A stretch of DNA of 64,000 bases from Candidatus Woesearchaeota archaeon CG1_02_57_44 (GCA_001871415.1 MNWW01000058.1:62001-126000), one strand, 5' to 3'; positions 44,797 through 64,000 are shown, numbered from the stretch's first letter. Notes: generated by a model not told the origin, from the letters alone. Made by a program: numbers and translations.

Positions 44797-46470
44797 ATGC
44801 GATCCGACGAAGTCAAGAAGGGAACTGAACGTGCTCCTCACCGCTCACTGCTGCGCGCTACAGGCTGCATCAAGGACGAGGCAGATTTCGGCAAGCCTTT
44901 CATCGCCATCGCCAACAGCTACACGGATTTCGTGCCTGGCCACGTGCACCTGGAAAAGGTCGGCAAGATGGTCAAGGAAGCAGTTCGCGAGGCTGGCGGG
45001 ATACCCTTTGAATTTCACACCATGGCCATTGATGACGGCATAGCCATGGGTCACATCGGCATGAAATACTCGCTGCCCAGCAGGGAACTTATCGCAGATT
45101 GCGTCGAGAGCATGTGCGAGGCGCATCGCGTCGATGGCTTGGTCTGCATCAGCAACTGCGATAAGATCACGCCAGGTATGCTGCTCGCCTCCATGCGTCT
45201 GAATATTCCCACTATCTTTGTGTCCGGCGGGCCCATGAAAGCGGGCAAGACCAAATCCGGCAAGAGCACTGATCTGATCTCCGTGTTCATCGGTGTGGGC
45301 GAGCTTGCCACGGGCAAGATAACGTCTGAGGGGCTCCAGGAGCTCGAAGAAGTCTCTTGCCCCACCTGCGGCAGCTGCTCTGGCATGTTCACGGCCAACA
45401 GCATGAACTGCCTGAATGAAGCCATCGGTATGGCCTTGCCAGGCAACGGCACGATACTTGCTATCGATTCCCGTCGGGATGCTCTGTATAAGGAAGCAGG
45501 AAAGCGCATCGTCGCCATGGTCAAGGACAACGGGCCGCTGCCTCGCCATATCGTCACGACCAAGAGCATCGACAATGCCTTCGCGCTGGACATGGCCATG
45601 GGGGGCAGCACGAACACGGTCCTGCACACGCTCGCGATGGCGCATGAGGCTGGTGTCGAGTATCCGCTCAAGCGCATCAACAATGTGGCTGACAAGGTCT
45701 CCTACATCTGCAAGGTCAGCCCCGCGGATCTGGACGTCCATGTCGAGGATGTCGACAGGGCTGGCGGTATCATGGCCATCCTGCACGAGCTGGACAAGAA
45801 GGGCCTCGTGCACCGGGATTGCCTGACGGTCTCGGGCAAAAGGATCGCGGACCAGTACGCAGGAGCTGATGTCAAGGACCACAAGGTCGTGCGCAGCATT
45901 GACGCACCGTTCACGGAAAAGGGAGGCCTGACTATATTGTCTGGTAACCTCGCTCCTGACGGGGCTGTCGTGAAGTCAGGCGCGGTGGATGCGGAGATGA
46001 TGGTGCATACGGGCCCTGCGCGCGTCTTCGACACAGAGGAAGACGCCAATGAAGCGATACTGGGAGGCAAGATCGTCGAGGGCGATGTCGTCGTCATCCG
46101 CTATGAAGGGCCTGCCGGCGGTCCTGGCATGAAAGAGATGTTGGCTCCTACGTCGAATATCGTCGGCCTGGGCCTTGGCAAGAGCGTCGCGCTCATCACC
46201 GATGGCAGGTTCTCCGGAGGGACCCGCGGCGCCTGCGTCGGGCATGTGTCTCCGGAAGCAGCGGCGCGTGGTCCTATCGCAGCGCTCTCCGATGGTGACA
46301 TCGTCACTGTCGATATCCCTGCGCGTCGGTTGGACGTGGACCTGACTTCAGAGGAGATCGCAGGCCGCCTCGAGAAGCTGGGCAAATTCACGCCGAAGAT
46401 AACACATGGCTGGCTTGGCAGGTACGCGCGCTTTGTGACGAGCGCGGATAAGGGCGCGGTGCTGAAATAG
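44797..46470 (+). CDS. ilvD: dihydroxy-acid dehydratase
   Basis: [52 protein letters not shown]. Confidence 0.97.
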
Positions 46471-55903: not shown

Positions 55904-56818
55904 CTACCTTACGGGCGCAAGCCATGTCGCGTGCTCCGCGTCCTCGCCCGCGATGACCTTGCTGAAGGCTGCCTGCAGTTGCTTGGTCACCGGGCCGGGC
56001 TTGCCGGTCCCGATGGTCCTGCCATCGACCTCGCGAACAGGAGTCAATTCTGCCGCAGTCCCTGTCAGGAACATCTCATCAGCGAGATACACATCGTCGC
56101 GGGTCAGGCGCGCCTCTGCGGTCGGTATGCCATGCTCCTTTGCCAGGACCATGACCGATTGGCGCGTGATGCCAGGCAAAAAGCTCGTGAACACAGGCGT
56201 TGTCAATATGCCATCGCGTACGATGAAGATATTCTCACCCGACCCCTCCGCAACATAGCCGTCCACGTCGAGCACCATGGCCTCATCATATCCGTTGCTC
56301 ACGGCTTCGTGCTTGGCGAGCACGCTGTTGACATAGGCGCCGCAGACCTTCGCGCGGGTCATATTGATGTTGACGTGATGTCGCGTGAAGCTGGAGGTCT
56401 TGACGCGGATGCCATTGGCGACGCCATCTTCGCCAAGATATGTTCCCCATTCCCATGCGGCTATGGCGACGTTGACCGTGCAGCCGACCGGGTTCAGGCC
56501 CATCTGTCCGTAGCCAAGATATATGATTGGTCTGATGTAGGCGGAGGGTAATTTATTCTTGGTGATGATGTCCCTGCATGCCTGTGTTATCATTTCTTTG
56601 CTGAACGGTACCTTGATCCCAAGGATGTGCGCTGAGCCGAAGAGTCTATCGACGTGCTCCTTGAGGCGAAAGACAGCTGGGCCCTGCTTTGTCGCATAGC
56701 AGCGGATGCCCTCAAAGACGCCGGTGCCATAATGGAGCGCGTGGGTGAGCACATGCACCTGCGCGTCCTTCCATGCGACAAGCTCGCCGTCCATCCAGAT
56801 GAACTTGGATTCCTTCAT
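55904..56818 (-). CDS. ilvE: branched-chain amino acid aminotransferase
   Basis: [40 protein letters not shown]. Confidence 0.96.
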
Positions 56819-56898
56819 GGGGCGAGGTGAGCAGGATGATGATTATAAATGTTTGGCGGGCGTGAAAACCTCCCGGATGGGTCTTCTTCAGCATAACC

Positions 56899-56906
56899 TT
56901 TAAATA
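56899..56906 (+). promoter_or_regulatory. TATA box of the leu/ilv operon
   Basis: TTTAAATA ending 24 nt before the uORF ATG at 56930. Confidence 0.7.
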
Positions 56907-56929
56907 TCGCCTCCCATTCTTTGTTGCAC

Positions 56930-57004
56930 ATGCACGACAACCATTCCATCACGGGCTCTGCCATTATCGGTAAGAGCGTCCTTCTGCTCGTGCTAGTCCT
57001 ATAG
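56930..57004 (+). CDS. putative leu/ilv operon leader peptide (24 aa)
   Basis: MHDNHSITGSAIIGKSVLLLVLVL; last eight codons GTC CTT CTG CTC GTG CTA GTC CTA; followed by hairpin GCCCGGG-CAAT-CCTGGGC. Confidence 0.75.
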   Translation: MHDNHSITGSAIIGKSVLLLVLVL

Positions 57005-57057
57005 CCCGGGCAATCCTGGGCCAGTGCATTGTCTTGAACCTTACAGGGGGTACTACC

Positions 57058-58617
57058 ATGAATACGGTAAGAATCTTTGACACAACACTTCGGGACGGAG
57101 AGCAGACACCGGGCGTCTCATTCACGCTGCAGGAGAAGCTTATGATAGCGAAGCAGCTTGAGCGCCTCGGCGTCGATATCATCGAGGCAGGTTTTCCCAT
57201 CGCGAGCAAGGGGAGCTTTGATGCTGTCCATCTCATAGCCAAGGAAGTCCGCAAGCCGGTCATCTGCGGGCTCGCGAGGACGGTCGACAAGGATATCAAG
57301 GCTGCGGCCGAGGCGCTCAAGGGCGCTGAGCGCGCAAGGATACACACATTCATCGCGACCAGCGACATTCATCGCGACCACAAGCTCAAGAAGACCAAGG
57401 AGCAGGTGGCGCAGATGGCGCGCGACGCGGTCAAGCTTGCCCGGACGTTCACGGATGATGTGGAGTTCTCGCCTGAGGACGCCAGCCGGACAGACCTCGA
57501 CTATATGTGCGCGGTGGTCGAGGAAGCGGTCGCGGCGGGTGCCACGACCATCAACATCCCTGACACGGTCGGCTACGCACAGCCGCAGGAATATGAAGAG
57601 CGCATCCGCTATGTCCAGGAGAAGGTGCCCAACATCAAGGGACTTGCCATCAGCACGCACTGCCACGACGACCTTGGCCTGAGCGTCGCCAATTCGCTCG
57701 CCGCGGTCAAGGCAGGGGCGACGCAGGTGGAATGCACCATCAATGGCATCGGCGAGCGCGCTGGCAACACGTCCATGGAAGAGGTGGTGATGGCCATCAG
57801 GATGCGCGGGGCATACTACAGCGCCACGACCAACATCAACACCCGCGAGCTGTTTCGCACCAGCCAGATGGTCGCGCGCTTCAGCGGCATCACGCCACAG
57901 CGCAACAAGGCCATCGTGGGCGCGAACGCGTTCGCGCACCAGGCTGGCATCCACCAGCACGGGGTCATCAGCAACAAGCGCACCTATGAGATCATGGACG
58001 CCGAAGACGTCGGCTGGGAAGGAGAGAACCTTGTCATCGGAAAGCTCTCGGGCAAGCACGCCATCAAGGAGGCACTGACCGAAGCGGGTTTTGAGCTCAC
58101 GGAGGATCAGCTGCTCAGCGTCACGGAGAAGGTCAAGGACCTTGGCGATAAGCAGAAGAGCATCCATCGCGATGATGTGGTCGCTATCGCCATCGATGTC
58201 CTGTCCGCCCTGAGCCCGAAGGAGGATCGCATCAAGCTTGATGAGCTCAGTGTCTTCACGGGCAATCGGGTCACGCCGAGCAGCACGGTCGGTGTCAGCA
58301 TCGACGGCCAGCGTCACATCGGCTCTGCCACCGGCGTCGGTCCGGTGGATGCTGCCGCAAAAGCCTTAAAGAGCGTCATCGGCCCGGGCTTTTTGCTCAA
58401 GGAATACAACCTGAAGGCCATCACGGGCGGTACCGATGCGCTGGCGAATGTGGCCATCAAGATGGAGGATGAGGAGCATAATGTCTTCACCTCCGAGGCG
58501 GTCGATGAAGATGTCATCATGGCGAGCGTGAAAGCAATGATCAAGGGCGCCAACAAGGCGTACCACTTCAAGACACAGCAGGATTTGCGACAAGGTGAGC
58601 GACATGAAAGGAAGTGA
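57058..58617 (+). CDS. leuA: 2-isopropylmalate synthase
   Basis: DTTLRDGEQ, PDTVG, HCHDD, GIGERAGN, GIHQHG, regulatory domain GVGPVDA; AGGGGGT SD. Confidence 0.95.
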   Translation: MNTVRIFDTTLRDGEQTPGVSFTLQEKLMIAKQLERLGVDIIEAGFPIASKGSFDAVHLIAKEVRKPVICGLARTVDKDIKAAAEALKGAERARIHTFIATSDIHRDHKLKKTKEQVAQMARDAVKLARTFTDDVEFSPEDASRTDLDYMCAVVEEAVAAGATTINIPDTVGYAQPQEYEERIRYVQEKVPNIKGLAISTHCHDDLGLSVANSLAAVKAGATQVECTINGIGERAGNTSMEEVVMAIRMRGAYYSATTNINTRELFRTSQMVARFSGITPQRNKAIVGANAFAHQAGIHQHGVISNKRTYEIMDAEDVGWEGENLVIGKLSGKHAIKEALTEAGFELTEDQLLSVTEKVKDLGDKQKSIHRDDVVAIAIDVLSALSPKEDRIKLDELSVFTGNRVTPSSTVGVSIDGQRHIGSATGVGPVDAAAKALKSVIGPGFLLKEYNLKAITGGTDALANVAIKMEDEEHNVFTSEAVDEDVIMASVKAMIKGANKAYHFKTQQDLRQGERHERK

Positions 58618-60334
58618 GGTCATCGTCAAGTGCCTGCAGCAGCAGGGCGTGCAGGACATCTTCGGCATCACCGGAGGCGCGGTCATACCGCTCTATGATG
58701 CCCTCTACGACCATCAAGATACCATCCGCAACATCATCTGCCGTCATGAGCAGGGGGCGGCGCACATGGCGGCCGGCTTCGCGCGCGCCAGCGGCAAGCC
58801 CGGTGTGTGCGTCGGCACGTCAGGGCCCGGAGGCAGCAACATGATTACGGGCATCATGGACGCGTTCATGGACTCGACGCCGATGGTCGCGATGGCGGGG
58901 CAGGTGCCGGTCTCTTTCATCGGCAAGGACGCGTTTCAGGAGACGGACATGATAGGGCTCACCATGCCCATCACCAAGCATAACTTCCAGGTCCGGGATC
59001 CTGAGAAGCTTGCTGAGACACTGGTCAAGGCATTCAAGCTGTCCACAGAAGGGAGGCCGGGGCCCATCTACATCGACCTTCCCAAGGACGTGCAGAACGC
59101 CACGGTCAAGGGTAGCATCCCAAAGGATGTCACCATCCCATCGTATCGGCCGCGTGTCAAGCCAAACCTGTACCAGATCAAGAAAGCCGTGACCGCGTTG
59201 CTCAAGGCAGAGCGCCCGCTCATCATCGCGGGCGGCGGATGCATCATCGCGGGCGCCAAGGACGCGCTCGCAGCGTTCGTCAATGCCTCGCACATCCCAG
59301 TCAATACCACGACCATGGGAAAAGGCATCTTCAATGAGGCGCATCCGCTGGCGCTCGGTGTCATGGGCATGCATGGCACAGAGGAAGCCAACTACGCAGC
59401 GGTCCACACGGATTGCATGCTTGCCATCGGTTGTCGGTTCTCTGATCGCATCACGGGCGATACCAGCTTGTTCGCGCAGGGCGCTATTGTCATCCACGCG
59501 GACATCGACCCCAGCGAGATAGGCAAGAACGTGCGCGTCGACATCCCGGTTGTGGGGGACGCGGCAGAGACCATCAAGCTGCTCACGCAGGTCTTCCTTG
59601 AGGAGAAAGGCAAGGATAAACACAAAGGCTCCGCATGGGTCAAGGCGCTCGAAGAGCTTCGCCAGATAGGCGAGAGCCATAAGGCGCGCGATGTCAAGGG
59701 CATGACGCAATCAAACATGATAACGCAGCTGGGCAGGTTCCTCAAGCAGGAGGATATCGTCACCACGGGCGTCGGCCAGCATCAGATGTTCGGAGAGCAC
59801 TACCTGCGGCGCACCCTGCCGCGCACCTGGATAACTTCGGGCGGCGCGGGCACTATGGGCTACGGCCTGCCAGCGGCGATCGGCGCCAAAGTGGCGGTTC
59901 CTGACCGGGAGGTCTATGACCTTGATGGTGATGGCAGTTTCCAGATGACCAGCCAGGAACTCGCGACTGCCAAGCAGTTCGGCATCAAGGTGACGCCGGT
60001 CCTCATGAACAACCAGTACCTTGGCATGGTCAAGCAGTGGCTCGACCTGTTCCAGGAGAGGCGGCATTCAGGCATCCACTTCAGCGTTAACCCTGACTTC
60101 GTCAAGCTGGCTGAGGCGTATCATCTGTCCGGCATCTCTGTCACACGGGAATCAGAGCTGGTCCCCGCGCTGCAGCAGGCGCGCAAGGCCGATGAGACCG
60201 TGCTTATCGATGTGCACGTCGACCCGGAGGATAATATCTTCCCCATGCTGCCGCCTGGCAAAGGGCTGCAGCACATCATCGGCGGCAAGGCCTACTTCAC
60301 CAAGACCTGGGACGAGGTCCGGCAGGGCAAGTAG
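58595..60334 (+). CDS. ilvB: acetolactate synthase large subunit
   Basis: RHEQGA, TSGPG, DAFQE, GTMGYGLP, GDGSFQM, NNQYLGMV. Confidence 0.96.
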   Translation: MSDMKGSEVIVKCLQQQGVQDIFGITGGAVIPLYDALYDHQDTIRNIICRHEQGAAHMAAGFARASGKPGVCVGTSGPGGSNMITGIMDAFMDSTPMVAMAGQVPVSFIGKDAFQETDMIGLTMPITKHNFQVRDPEKLAETLVKAFKLSTEGRPGPIYIDLPKDVQNATVKGSIPKDVTIPSYRPRVKPNLYQIKKAVTALLKAERPLIIAGGGCIIAGAKDALAAFVNASHIPVNTTTMGKGIFNEAHPLALGVMGMHGTEEANYAAVHTDCMLAIGCRFSDRITGDTSLFAQGAIVIHADIDPSEIGKNVRVDIPVVGDAAETIKLLTQVFLEEKGKDKHKGSAWVKALEELRQIGESHKARDVKGMTQSNMITQLGRFLKQEDIVTTGVGQHQMFGEHYLRRTLPRTWITSGGAGTMGYGLPAAIGAKVAVPDREVYDLDGDGSFQMTSQELATAKQFGIKVTPVLMNNQYLGMVKQWLDLFQERRHSGIHFSVNPDFVKLAEAYHLSGISVTRESELVPALQQARKADETVLIDVHVDPEDNIFPMLPPGKGLQHIIGGKAYFTKTWDEVRQGK

Positions 60335-60512
60335 CAACCACCCTGCAGCACATACGGTGCCCCTGGTGGAACGTCGGGACTGGCAGAAGAATCCCTTCGC
60401 AGCGGGGCAAGGGCGCAGGGCGACGCGTTGCGGAAATGCGTCCGACAATACCATAAACAATAAAACAGGATTCAATCCCACAACACGAATCCCACAGCAC
60501 GAGGCGATACCT

Positions 60513-61142
60513 ATGTACAGCGACAAGAAAGAATGGCACCCATCACACAGGCATGTCATCAGCCTGATGGTGGTCGATGAGCCAGGAGTGCTCACCCGCA
60601 TCAGCAACATGTTCTTCAAGCGCAACTTCAACATCGACACTCTGACCGTCAGTCCCAGCATCATCAATGGGCAAAGCCGCATCACGCTGAGCTTCTTTGG
60701 CGACGATTCAGTCTATGAGCAGCTCATCAAGCAGCTCAACAAGCTCATCGACGTCATCAAGGTATCAGACTTGCCCAAGGGCGATACGGTCATCAGGGAT
60801 TTGTGCCTGGTGCGCGTCACGGCCAAGGACGCGGCCACGCAGAACCAGCTCATCAACTACTGCCGCTTCTATCGCGCGCGCATCGTCGATGCCACGCATG
60901 ATGATCTCATGGTCGAGATGGTGGGCAAGCCCGAGAAGATAGACGCGTTCCTCGAGCTTGTAGGGCCCTTGGGCATCAAGGAGGTATCGCGCACAGGCGT
61001 CACGGCGCTCGCCCGCGGCAATGGGGTGAAAGGCAATGGGATGAGGGGGAATGGCGTGAAGGGCAACGGCAGCGTGAGCGGCGCCTCCACGAGCGCGGGC
61101 AGCAAGACCGCAGGCTCTCCTGATGGAGGGGATGTGCGATGA
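60513..61142 (+). CDS. ilvN: acetolactate synthase small subunit
   Basis: [27 protein letters not shown]; GNGxx-repeat tail. Confidence 0.93.
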
Positions 61143-62581
61143 CCAAGCACGCTGGCAAGACGCTCTATGACAAGATCTTTGACCTGCATACCGTGAGGCA
61201 GCTGCCTACTGGTCAATATCAGCTCTTCATCGGCCTGCACCTGGTGCATGAGGTGACCAGCCCCCAAGCATTCGCGATGCTCCGGGAACGTGGACTGAAG
61301 GTGGCTTATCCAGAGCGCACGTTCGCGACCGTGGATCACATTGTCCCCACGCACGACCAGAAACGCCCCTACCAGGATGCGCAGGCAGAGAAGATGATAG
61401 CGGCAATGGAATCGAACGCGAAGGAGTTCTGCTTCATGCTCTACAATACGCAGAGCGGCAAGCAGGGCGTGGTGCACATCATCGGTCCCGAGCTTGGCCT
61501 GACGCAGCCAGGCATGACCATCGCATGCGGCGACTCGCACACCAGCACGCACGGCGCGTTCGGCGCCCTCGCGTTCGGCATCGGCACCAGCCAGGTCCGG
61601 GATGTGCTGGCCACGCAGACGCTCGCCATCAACAGGCTCAAGGTCAGGCGCATCAATGTGACAGGCAGCCTGAAGCCAGGTGTCTACGCAAAGGATGTCG
61701 TGCTCGCCATCATCCGCAAGCTGGGCGTGAAAGGCGGCATCGGTTATGCCTATGAATACGGAGGCAGTGCCATTGAAGCACTGAGCATGGAAGGCAGGAT
61801 GACGCTGTGCAACATGACAATAGAAGGGGGTGCTCTGTGCGGTTATGTCAATCCTGACAAGACGACGTTCAGCTACCTGCAGGGCCGCGAGTTCGCGCCT
61901 GGTCTTGACGCATGGGATCGCGCGGTCGCGTTCTGGAGCAGCATGGCATCGGACGCTGACGCGGTCTATGATGATGTGGTGGAAATAGACGGTTCAGTGC
62001 TCTCGCCCATGGTCACCTGGGGCATCAATCCCGGACAGGCCATAGGCATCGACGAGAACGTGCCTGACCCTGCCAGCATGATCGCTGATGAGGCGCAAGT
62101 GGCATCGCGGGCATTGGCGCACATGGGACTTGTTGCGGGACAGCCAATCACGGGAACACCGGTGGATGTGGTCTTCATCGGCAGCTGCACCAATGGCAGG
62201 CTGTCTGACCTGCGCGAGGCGGCCAGGATAGCGAAGGGGAAGAGGGTGCACGCGGGCGTGAAAGCGCTCGTCGTCCCTGGCAGCCAGCAGGTCAAGAAGA
62301 CGGCGGAAGCAGAAGGCCTCGACAAGATCTTCACTACGGCGGGCTTCGAGTGGCGCAGCGCTGGGTGCAGCATGTGCCTTGCGATGAACCCAGACAAGCT
62401 GCAGGGCAACCAGCTTTCGGCGAGCAGCAGCAACCGCAACTTCATCGGCAGGCAGGGCAGCCCCACGGGCAGGACACTGCTCATGAGCCCTGCCATGTGC
62501 GCGGCCGCGGCGATCGCAGGAAAGGTCGTGGATGTGCGGGCGGTCGATGTGCGTGCGGCAGCTGCGCTGGAGGTGAGGTGA
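61139..62581 (+). CDS. leuC: 3-isopropylmalate dehydratase large subunit
   Basis: [46 protein letters not shown]. Confidence 0.97.
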
Positions 62582-63241
62582 ATGGCGAAGCATATCATCG
62601 AGGTGTCTGGCAGAGGGGTCGTGGTCAGGGGCAATGACATCGACACAGACCGCATCATCCCTGCGCGCTACATGAAGGAGATAACCTTCGACCATATGGG
62701 CGAGTACGCGTTCTATGATGAGCGCTTTACGCAGGAATTGGGTCGGGATGGCAAGCCGCAGCAGAAGGCGCATCCCTTCAATGACGTACGCTTCCGGGGT
62801 GCGTCCATCCTGCTCGTCAACAAGAACTTCGGCTGCGGCAGCTCGCGCGAGCACGCTCCCCAGGCGCTCATGCGCTGGGGCATCACCGCGATAGTTGGCG
62901 AGAGCTTCGCTGCCATCTTCGCGGGCAACTGCACCATGCTGGGCATACCGACCCTGACAGTATCGTCGCAGGAAATCGAGGAGCTGATGCAGCAGGTAGA
63001 GGCGCATCCGCAGGAACAGCTGGTGCTGGACATCGCGGCAGTCCGGATCGCCGCGGGCAACCTGCGGGGGGAGGCGTCCATGCCTGAATCCATCAGGAAG
63101 GCACTTACCGAAGGCACCTGGGATTCGACATCGCTGTTGCTGGACGGCAAGGACGCCATAGCGGCGCTGGCGAAGCGATTGCCGTACCTTAACACCTTCC
63201 GCGGAGGGTCGCAGGGCACAGGCGACGTCGGGAGAGCGTAG
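62582..63241 (+). CDS. leuD: 3-isopropylmalate dehydratase small subunit
   Basis: DIDTDRIIP, NFGCGSSREHA, SFAAIF. Confidence 0.96.
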   Translation: MAKHIIEVSGRGVVVRGNDIDTDRIIPARYMKEITFDHMGEYAFYDERFTQELGRDGKPQQKAHPFNDVRFRGASILLVNKNFGCGSSREHAPQALMRWGITAIVGESFAAIFAGNCTMLGIPTLTVSSQEIEELMQQVEAHPQEQLVLDIAAVRIAAGNLRGEASMPESIRKALTEGTWDSTSLLLDGKDAIAALAKRLPYLNTFRGGSQGTGDVGRA

Positions 63242-63334
63242 GGCATTCACGTATGTGACGAGCATTCCTGCACATAACGAGAACCATAAATCGAAGTCAT
63301 AGAAACCATATACCACGGCAATCGAGGCGAAAAC

Positions 63335-64000
63335 ATGAGCGGGACAGGAAAAAAGATCGCGGTGCTGCCGGGCGATGGCATCGGACCTGAAGTCATGGCT
63401 GAAGCATTGAAGGTGCTCAAAGCTGTCGAGACAAAGCACAAGGTCACGTTCCAGTGCACCACCGCCGATGTCGGCGGCATGGCGCATGACAAGCATGGCA
63501 CAGCGCTTCCGCCAAAGACCCTGGAGCTCTGCGAAAAAAGCGATGCCATATTGTTCGGCAGCGTCGGCGGGCCGAAATGGGACAACCTGCCATCTGACCA
63601 GAAAGTGGAGCGCGCGGCGCTGCTGCGCCTGCGCAAGCACTTCAATCTCTTCGCGAACCTGCGGCCCGCCATCTGCTACAGCGAGCTTGCCTCAGCGTCG
63701 CCGCTGCGCGCGGACATCGTGGGCAATGGCTTTGACATCCTGGTCATAAGAGAATTGACGAGCGGCATCTACTTCGGCCGTAAGGGTGAGGAGAAGGACC
63801 ACGCGTTCGACGAGATGCTCTATCGCAGGGATGAGGTGGAGCGCATCGCGAAAGTCGCGTTCGAGACAGCGCGGCAACGCAAAGGGCATGTGACCTGTGT
63901 GGACAAGAGCAATGTGCTGCAGAGCAGCATGTTCTGGCGGCGCATCGTCAATGAGGTGCATCGAGGGTACAACGATGTGGCATTGGATCACCTCTACATC
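63335..64000 (+). CDS. leuB: 3-isopropylmalate dehydrogenase (partial, runs off the window)
   Basis: [47 protein letters not shown]. Confidence 0.95.

Follow-up and report, generated by a model that had tools for sequence, protein, structure and literature searches.

Putative leaderless leader peptides with pathway-matched codons upstream of leuA and other amino-acid biosynthesis genes in Woesearchaeota: a candidate archaeal variant of attenuation

Attenuation by leader peptides belongs to the textbook knowledge on bacteria. The classical attenuator combines mutually exclusive 1:2, 2:3 and 3:4 helices with a terminator formed by a GC hairpin and a U-tract. Two other bacterial arrangements have been described. 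In mycobacteria, a ribosome stalled on poly-Cys leaderless sORFs (the 'Cys ribulon') frees a sequestered Shine-Dalgarno (SD) sequence (10.1101/834739), and in the actinobacterial LEU element the Leu codons pair with the SD in a structure that includes a pseudoknot (PMC1262725). Regarding archaea, PMC6737238 presents TrpY and Tar as DNA-binding regulators of amino-acid biosynthesis operons that act at initiation, and the accessible portions of PMC8116511, PMC6737238 and PMC13158618 cover protein regulators or bacterial cases only. In a literature search based mainly on abstracts and including few subscription papers, no amino-acid leader-peptide attenuation was found to be described for archaea. 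A two-codon Met-Trp leader has reportedly been proposed for trpY in Methanothermobacter.

On the side of transcription termination, the archaeal factor FttA/aCPSF1 is a homologue of CPSF73, a nuclease of eukaryotes. According to PMC11616081, the nascent RNA that FttA binds is U-rich, over a span of 36 nt, and an FttA-dependent terminator would show a U at −23, U-rich RNA from −30 to −36 relative to the polymerase 3′ end and cleavage in vivo; PMC8716108 and PMC13675443 describe archaeal termination without a hairpin requirement. The authors of the FttA termination studies suggested that a coupled ribosome and FttA exclude one another (PMC11616081, PMC8716108), and the word 'attenuation' is absent from the main texts of both.

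The locus considered here lies in a window of 64,000 nucleotides (the whole stretch of DNA that was analysed, with positions counted from its first letter), upstream of an operon with the order leuA-ilvB-ilvN-leuC-leuD-leuB(-ilvC). The first gene (57058..58617, plus strand) encodes a bacterial-type 2-isopropylmalate synthase, which scored over the cut-offs of TIGR00973 and NF002086, was about 50% identical to bacterial LeuA and was also placed as bacterial-type by tree. It is followed on the same strand by ilvB and ilvN (58604..61142; TIGR00118 and TIGR00119 over cut-off), encoding the acetolactate synthase of the Val/Ile/Leu branch, and by leuC and leuD together with the first part of leuB (61139..64000), with leuC and leuD over the NCBIfam cut-offs and the partial leuB matching best as leuB; a further ORF, taken from its sequence to be ilvC, comes after leuB, outside the window. 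Just past the window and before ilvC, a ten-codon ORF without a run of branched-chain amino acid (BCAA) codons was observed (C44:126489-126521), which lies after a TATA-like stretch and overlaps a strong GC hairpin. In the divergent direction, ilvE (55904..56849, minus strand; ORF 55904-56818; TIGR01122 over cut-off) has its own TATA box (56842-56849) with leaderless spacing and carries no leader ORF, which makes it an internal negative control, and ilvD (44797-46470, plus strand) is, judging from its upstream sequence, a separate and apparently leaderless gene that also lacks a leader ORF. In the host genome, no leaders were seen upstream of argG, proB, lysC, ilvD and ilvE. This genome (57% GC, 82% complete) belongs to an archaeon, as indicated by its TBP and FttA/aCPSF1 genes, and, at about 70% identity to its FttA, the named relatives carry the labels Woesearchaeota or Nanoarchaeia. 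In this 82% complete assembly, trpE was not found and no Leu-CAG tRNA occurred among the 22 assembled tRNAs; ARAGORN assigned a CUA anticodon to one tRNA of this set.

The TATA box of the leader/leuA transcript, TTTAAATA, occupies positions 56899..56906 (plus strand), and the transcript 5′ end was predicted from it. It is separated by 23 nt from an ATG at 56930, which corresponds to 31 nt from the first TATA base to this ATG; among the long ORFs of the Woesearchaeota-like host genome, the TATA-ATG distance peaks at 28-32 nt, and in the leaders of relatives it is 29-34 nt. Since the spacing of 31 nt falls within the genome's peak, the leader ORF is likely to be translated from the very 5′ end of the transcript, that is, as a leaderless ORF. 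The predicted ORF (56930..57004, plus strand) has 24 codons, ends at TAG 57002-57004 and encodes the peptide MHDNHSITGSAIIGKSVLLLVLVL, in which L, I and V account for 11/24 residues. Eight consecutive Val/Leu control codons (GTC CTT CTG CTC GTG CTA GTC CTA; 56978..57001) abut the stop, and the three Ile codons of the leader fall outside the conserved control stretch. A hairpin of 7 bp, one of them a G-U pair, with a 4-nt loop begins at the stop codon (57004..57021, plus strand) and is not followed by a U-tract. These elements had been reported by the first-pass annotation and agree with the sequence, as do the shorter segments that it listed, namely CGGGCT at 56952, AGCCCG at 57003, GCTCT/AGAGC and ACCTT/GGGGT. 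The leuA ATG is at 57058. Genome-wide, at least six L+V in the last ten codons were found in one of 155 TATA-linked short ORFs, which is the leuA leader itself. A 17-nt stretch of this leader (56954..56970, plus strand) recurs as an exact copy at C8:25581, within the Ile leader of cimA, and nowhere else, which suggests a duplication or conversion between the Leu/Val and Ile leaders. A search of the leader against Rfam at E ≤ 10 returned no leader family, the only match being a chance one to CRISPR-DR47 at E 6.6.

A LeuA-family gene was found in 86 of the 401 genomes of the order. The upstream DNA was examined for part of the LeuA-family matches (112 rows, full-length ones favoured), of which three loci from unpublished genomes, one duplicate and three with <250 nt upstream were left out, resulting in 105 loci. 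Leaders were called by a fixed rule that ignores amino-acid content, in which a TATA score of at least 7/8, 28-34 nt before the ATG, is followed by an ORF of 8-45 codons; when several candidates existed, that with the strongest post-stop hairpin was chosen, a single candidate being present in 71 of the 88 called loci. The first-pass annotation had proposed looking for Leu/Val-rich upstream ORFs before leuA in relatives, and among the orthologous leuA genes (clade A, 54-68% identity) such an ORF, with at least six L+V among its final ten codons, was called at 30/34 loci. By eye, a leader was recognised at 34/35 clade-A loci, covering 19 families by their labels, with L141 as the one locus that had none. 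The N-terminal halves of these orthologous leaders diverge (13% identity), and the share of L+V is 91% in the last ten residues versus 14% in the first ten; T occupies 94% of second codon positions.

Under the same rule, other, mostly stand-alone, leuA genes were preceded by an ORF with L≥5 in the last ten codons at 12/16 loci. Side observations at stand-alone leuA genes included tandem Leu-rich leader ORFs, the second with an SD-like start (L011, L017, L147, L153), and at two loci an unannotated ORF of ~60-110 codons was noticed between the Leu leader and leuA (L012, L152). For cimA, an Ile tail (I≥4) was called before 38/46 genes, comprising 27/32 of the TIGR00977 type and 11/14 of the Leptospira type, which form two separate clades; three of 32 cimA loci were without a leader, and none was called at two LysW-linked homocitrate synthases. 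As the same leader design occurs on several separate enzyme clades, it looks like a trait of the host. A LeuA-based scan of the genome collection returned bacterial loci only, and 25 of these 79 had some Leu/Val-rich short ORF under a loose rule, several of them being of the bacterial leader type. Leu-run leader ORFs were observed at bacterial leuA loci L041, L064, L068, L102 and L107 (a Falkowbacteria record and planctomycete records), and the planctomycete ones combine a Leu run with two Arg at the end. These loci speak neither for nor against an import of the leader together with the leuA gene.

The residues read by these leaders followed the pathway encoded downstream. In the host genome, an Ile-rich leader ORF with a post-stop hairpin precedes cimA (L311; C8:25536-25613, plus strand), and a leader ORF that is rich in Phe/Tyr and carries a strong hairpin lies ~300 nt before the DAHP synthase/aro operon (L312; C19:19327-19265, minus strand), so that runs of cognate codons near the stop occur at several operons of the host (Leu/Val, Ile, Phe/Tyr), and also in relatives. 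In 67 genomes chosen for carrying these genes, a Phe/Tyr-rich tail with F/Y/W≥4 was found before 12 of the best 30 aroF loci, most of the others being operon-internal, and the fixed rule called 0 leaders at the best 30 lysC and the best 30 ilvE loci. Within clade A, leaders with at least two Val were found in 28/28 cases where ilvB is the next gene, and Val was found in 0/3 leaders when leuB, leuC or ilvE comes next, a count in which four peptides were taken by eye and kin are not independent. Moreover, at codons −2 to −4 CUG and GUG reached 58% and 61%; the corresponding shares within leuA genes are 10% and 18%. Residues that track the pathway, together with a position-specific synonymous choice, are hard to explain except by a ribosome-read sensing of charged tRNA, and the ribosome very probably senses charged tRNA-Leu and tRNA-Val through the codon run of this leader. 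The leaderless peptide sensing via ribosome stalling that the first-pass annotation had put forward is thus strongly supported by conservation and by the pathway-matched codons. Its proposed specificity for Leu, Val and Ile was borne out for Leu and Val, for which conservation and pathway-tracking codons speak, and had to be narrowed for Ile: it is strongly supported that the leuA leader reads Leu and Val and that Ile is read by the separate leader before cimA. The L, V, I and F of the tails are hydrophobic residues, which would suit ORFs that encode functional small hydrophobic peptides or are chance frames in AT-rich DNA; however, which residues fill the tail depends on the pathway (L+V, L, I or F/Y), synonymous codons are biased, the same genomes lack such leaders before lysC and ilvE, and the leuA leader is the one ORF with such a tail among the 155 TATA-linked short ORFs of its genome, which makes this explanation highly improbable.

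Other short ORFs, of a second design, were observed before trpE. At 15/30 loci recognised by pattern (L262-L269, L271, L273, L274, L278, L279, L284, L285), the leader has 7-14 codons with a conserved S-D-C-x-W core and one Trp, followed by a conserved downstream motif without a GC hairpin, and a consensus fold of these 15 trp leaders gave no structure; other Trp-ending leaders precede trpE at L281, L283 and L286. His-containing short leader ORFs were noticed by eye before his genes at ~9/30 loci (L229, L240, L242, L243, L247, L250, L256, L257, L258), some of which resemble the trp core (D/G-C-x-H). Also by eye, a conserved palindrome, CCGCA-N4-TGCGG, was found directly upstream of the TATA box of his promoters (L230, L231, L232, L237, L239, L240, L244, L246, L247, L250), which is possibly a transcription-factor site.

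The hairpin following the stop codon is a property of the family. Across 94 leaders whose tail is cognate, the 45 nt counted from the stop folded with a median z of −2.59 versus shuffles, and four flanking windows gave z of about 0; the median remained at −2.57 in the 65 loci that involved no choice among candidates. The individual hairpin at 57004..57021 had a z of −0.94 and the whole leader −0.72, which is not significant at 57% GC. Across the family, the stem mostly begins at a distance of 2-6 nt from the stop codon's first nucleotide and has a G-C pair at its base. The loops are U-biased (43% U; T4+ in 17 and A4+ in 3 of 91 leaders), and the RNA 3′ of the stem is A-biased (A4+ in 51 and T4+ in 20 of 91). 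A U-tract was not enriched, T4+ within 14 nt after the stem occurring in 7/91 leaders versus 5.6 in shuffles. Behind the stem, the motif CA-N-N-G was present in 39/91 leaders versus 14.6 ± 3.4 in shuffles, and one or more such motifs lie at the 3′ base of the leuA leader stem (57022..57031, plus strand).

Folding of the window leader depended on where the ribosome was placed. In ribosome-free RNA, a predicted alternative helix between control codons at 56985-56995 and 57002-57012 (spanning 56985..57012, plus strand) excludes the post-stop hairpin, whose probability was then 0.04-0.06; with a ribosome masking codons −8 to −3 the hairpin reached 0.99-1.0, and with a ribosome at −2, −1 or the stop it fell to 0. 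The displacing helix is not a family trait (Wilcoxon p 0.41), and the idea that the CUG/GUG bias serves a 1:2 helix was dropped as unsupported (p 0.41). No partner helix of the 3:4 type emerged across the family (4/91 leaders), and a 1:2-like helix was predicted in the window leader only.

The first-pass annotation had further proposed that ribosome stalling acts by occluding the leuA SD or by factor-dependent (FttA/aCPSF1-like) termination. In the first of these readings, the 5′ arm of the hairpin would pair within the ORF, and leuA translation would be gated by an ACCUU/GGGGU stem. The complementary segments are present, and the weak stem (57038..57051, plus strand) over the SD-like AGGGGGT (57045-57051) does form, with a pair probability of 0.28-0.38; in one mask series, SD access even went from 0.59 with the ribosome stalled at −5 or −3 to 0.33 with the ribosome at the stop. 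Nevertheless, this stem made no clear switch with ribosome position, and the proposed pairing of 56952-57 with 57003-08 had a probability of 0.0001, and no such pairing is conserved (5/91 leaders at z<-2). Neither arm of the hairpin showed a conserved pairing to the ORF or to RNA further downstream (5, 6 and 4 of 91 leaders, not above shuffles). The ribosome-masked folding that had been suggested as a check revealed no consistent change of SD access across leaders, the mean being 0.48-0.54 in every ribosome state; at the stop, the SD was more accessible in 9 leaders and less so in 15. In clade A, moreover, the leuA start codon lies a median of 67 nt past the hairpin and within 12 nt in 0/29 cases. 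SD occlusion is therefore not sustained for leuA, and an SD switch of this kind is quite improbable.

The cognate codon was found at −1 in 50/94 leaders, at −2 in 90/94, at −3 in 88/94 and at −4 in 85/94, and in the clade-A leuA leaders the last codon was cognate in 87%. When Ile leaders end with Ile, the stem begins 6-9 nt from the stop (8/10), and when they do not, it begins mostly 2-5 nt from it (p 0.005, kin not independent). Because the stem shifts by about one codon when the last codon is Ile, the last control codon seems to be held ~6 nt from the stem. In the Haloferax volcanii ribosome footprint, the A site lies 11 nt from the 3′ edge, as given in PMC7261190; with this footprint, a ribosome at −5 left the hairpin at a probability of 0.81, one at −2 at 0.48 and one at the stop at 0.03. 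The control-codon runs reach ~11 codons, a length that suits a model in which the ribosome stalls early.

From these features, a mechanism can be proposed in which the ribosome would load at the transcript 5′ end and trail the RNA polymerase. Under scarcity of Leu or Val, the ribosome would stall in the run, the hairpin just ahead of it would stay intact and the polymerase would read through; when both Leu and Val are plentiful, the ribosome would reach the stop and melt the 5′ arm of the hairpin, exposing the U-biased loop, the 3′ arm and the CA-N-N-G stretch to FttA/aCPSF1, with cleavage and termination as the outcome. The hairpin would thus be the protective structure of the starvation state, and the ~6-nt spacing would represent a lower bound that shields the stem from the stalled ribosome, the control codons filling the space up to this bound. 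The accessible part of an attenuator model (PMC1183508) stresses a large proportion of regulatory codons, which matches the lower-bound reading. The logic would be that of a bacterial antiterminator in which the terminator hairpin is swapped for the hairpin-independent termination of archaea. FttA-type termination at the leader is plausible. FttA was found in 54/59 relatives and in the host genome, but the factor is, to our knowledge, near-universal in archaea and its presence therefore says little; moreover, the modest U bias of the loop fits the FttA spacing poorly. The combination of this polarity (intact hairpin = on) with FttA termination as the output is an even call.

The opposite polarity was considered with the same sensing. 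The hairpin would be an OFF element whose 5′ arm is kept open by a starved ribosome on the last control codons; in the fed state the ribosome would leave and the hairpin would form, blocking initiation, terminating transcription or triggering decay, following the logic of cat/erm and of the mycobacterial poly-Cys leaders. The control codons cluster at −2 to −4, with the otherwise rare CUG/GUG there, and since codon −2, the best conserved one, is borderline for melting, with ribosome masking halving the hairpin at this position, the opposite polarity fits as well. The G-C stem base is terminator-like, and the mycobacterial leaderless sORFs offer a precedent (10.1101/834739). In addition, the start codon lies <20 nt from the stem in 18/91 leaders (13 of them cimA; 7 at ≤12 nt), and pairing to an anti-SD was better for 3′ arms (31/91) than for 5′ arms (7/91), so that an intact hairpin at such loci would hinder initiation, contrary to a purely 'on' role. 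On the other hand, codon −1, the best position for melting, is the least conserved, in Ile leaders the stem moves away precisely when codon −1 is cognate, and runs of 10 codons would stall a starved ribosome far upstream. A start codon >40 nt past the stem was found in 58/91 genes, 47 of these with an SD of their own, ORFs that could relay translation from the hairpin to the gene were seen in 13/59 long leaders and are not general, and the stem is not followed by a U-tract. The borderline position −2, the near starts, the SD-like 3′ arms and the cognate last codon of clade A keep this opposite polarity as an unlikely but serious alternative to the intact-hairpin-on reading.

Finally, sensing could act on mRNA stability or polymerase pausing, the stalled ribosome and the hairpin shielding the 5′ end from nucleases. 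The predicted leaderless position at the 5′ end suits such an effect, as does the lack of any terminator signal found after the stem, and FttA is also described as a 5′-3′ exonuclease in PMC11616081; by itself, however, this explanation does not account for the constant distance at which the stem follows the last control codon, and it is improbable.

These results altogether indicate a real, conserved regulatory element that would be an archaeal variant of leader-peptide attenuation, a conclusion that is well supported as far as sensing is concerned. The broadest form of the proposal, to which slightly less than an even chance is given, is that the amino-acid pathways of Woesearchaeota (Leu/Val, Leu, Ile and Phe/Tyr, with Trp and His by a second design) may be governed by leaderless attenuators with one hairpin, in which a ribosome at the stop codon would melt the hairpin for FttA/aCPSF1, and that these attenuators would be retuned by codon as the operon content changes and attached to genes imported from bacteria. 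If true, it would give archaea their first attenuation system that is gated by the ribosome and depends on a cleavage factor. The leader family also implies an active control of amino-acid synthesis by these small uncultured DPANN archaea themselves. Two questions become open to testing, namely whether archaea put their transcription-translation coupling to regulatory use and whether FttA can act conditionally, the testability resting on the amino-acid-matched leaders, the gain and loss of Val with ilvB and the fixed ribosome-hairpin spacing.

Compared with known systems, the putative archaeal leader resembles the enterobacterial leuL, ilvL, ivbL and pheL in having a short upstream ORF with product-cognate codons followed by RNA structure, and the stall-to-read-through logic predicted for it is also that of the enterobacterial attenuators, as represented in their model (PMC1183508). 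It differs from them in its TATA promoter, predicted leaderless start, single hairpin and a run that abuts the stop, and in having neither a U-tract terminator hairpin, nor an exclusive multi-helix set, nor an Rfam match. With TrpY and Tar it shares the target class, amino-acid operons, but these are proteins and not ribosome-read leaders (PMC6737238). FttA/aCPSF1 termination, the proposed output, is U-rich and hairpin-independent, and its conditional use is our suggestion here. The LEU element (PMC1262725) likewise has a leader with a Leu run ahead of leuA and lacks a classical terminator, whereas in pseudoknot-free folds of the archaeal leader no pairing of Leu codons with the SD was found. 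With the mycobacterial Cys ribulon (10.1101/834739), the archaeal leaders have in common a sensor ORF, here putatively leaderless, a cognate run near its end and an occurrence at several operons. An SD-sequestering duplex of the Cys-ribulon type would be possible in a minority of the cimA leaders, but the archaeal leuA leaders show no conserved SD pairing and instead carry a stop-anchored hairpin that is kept across four pathways.
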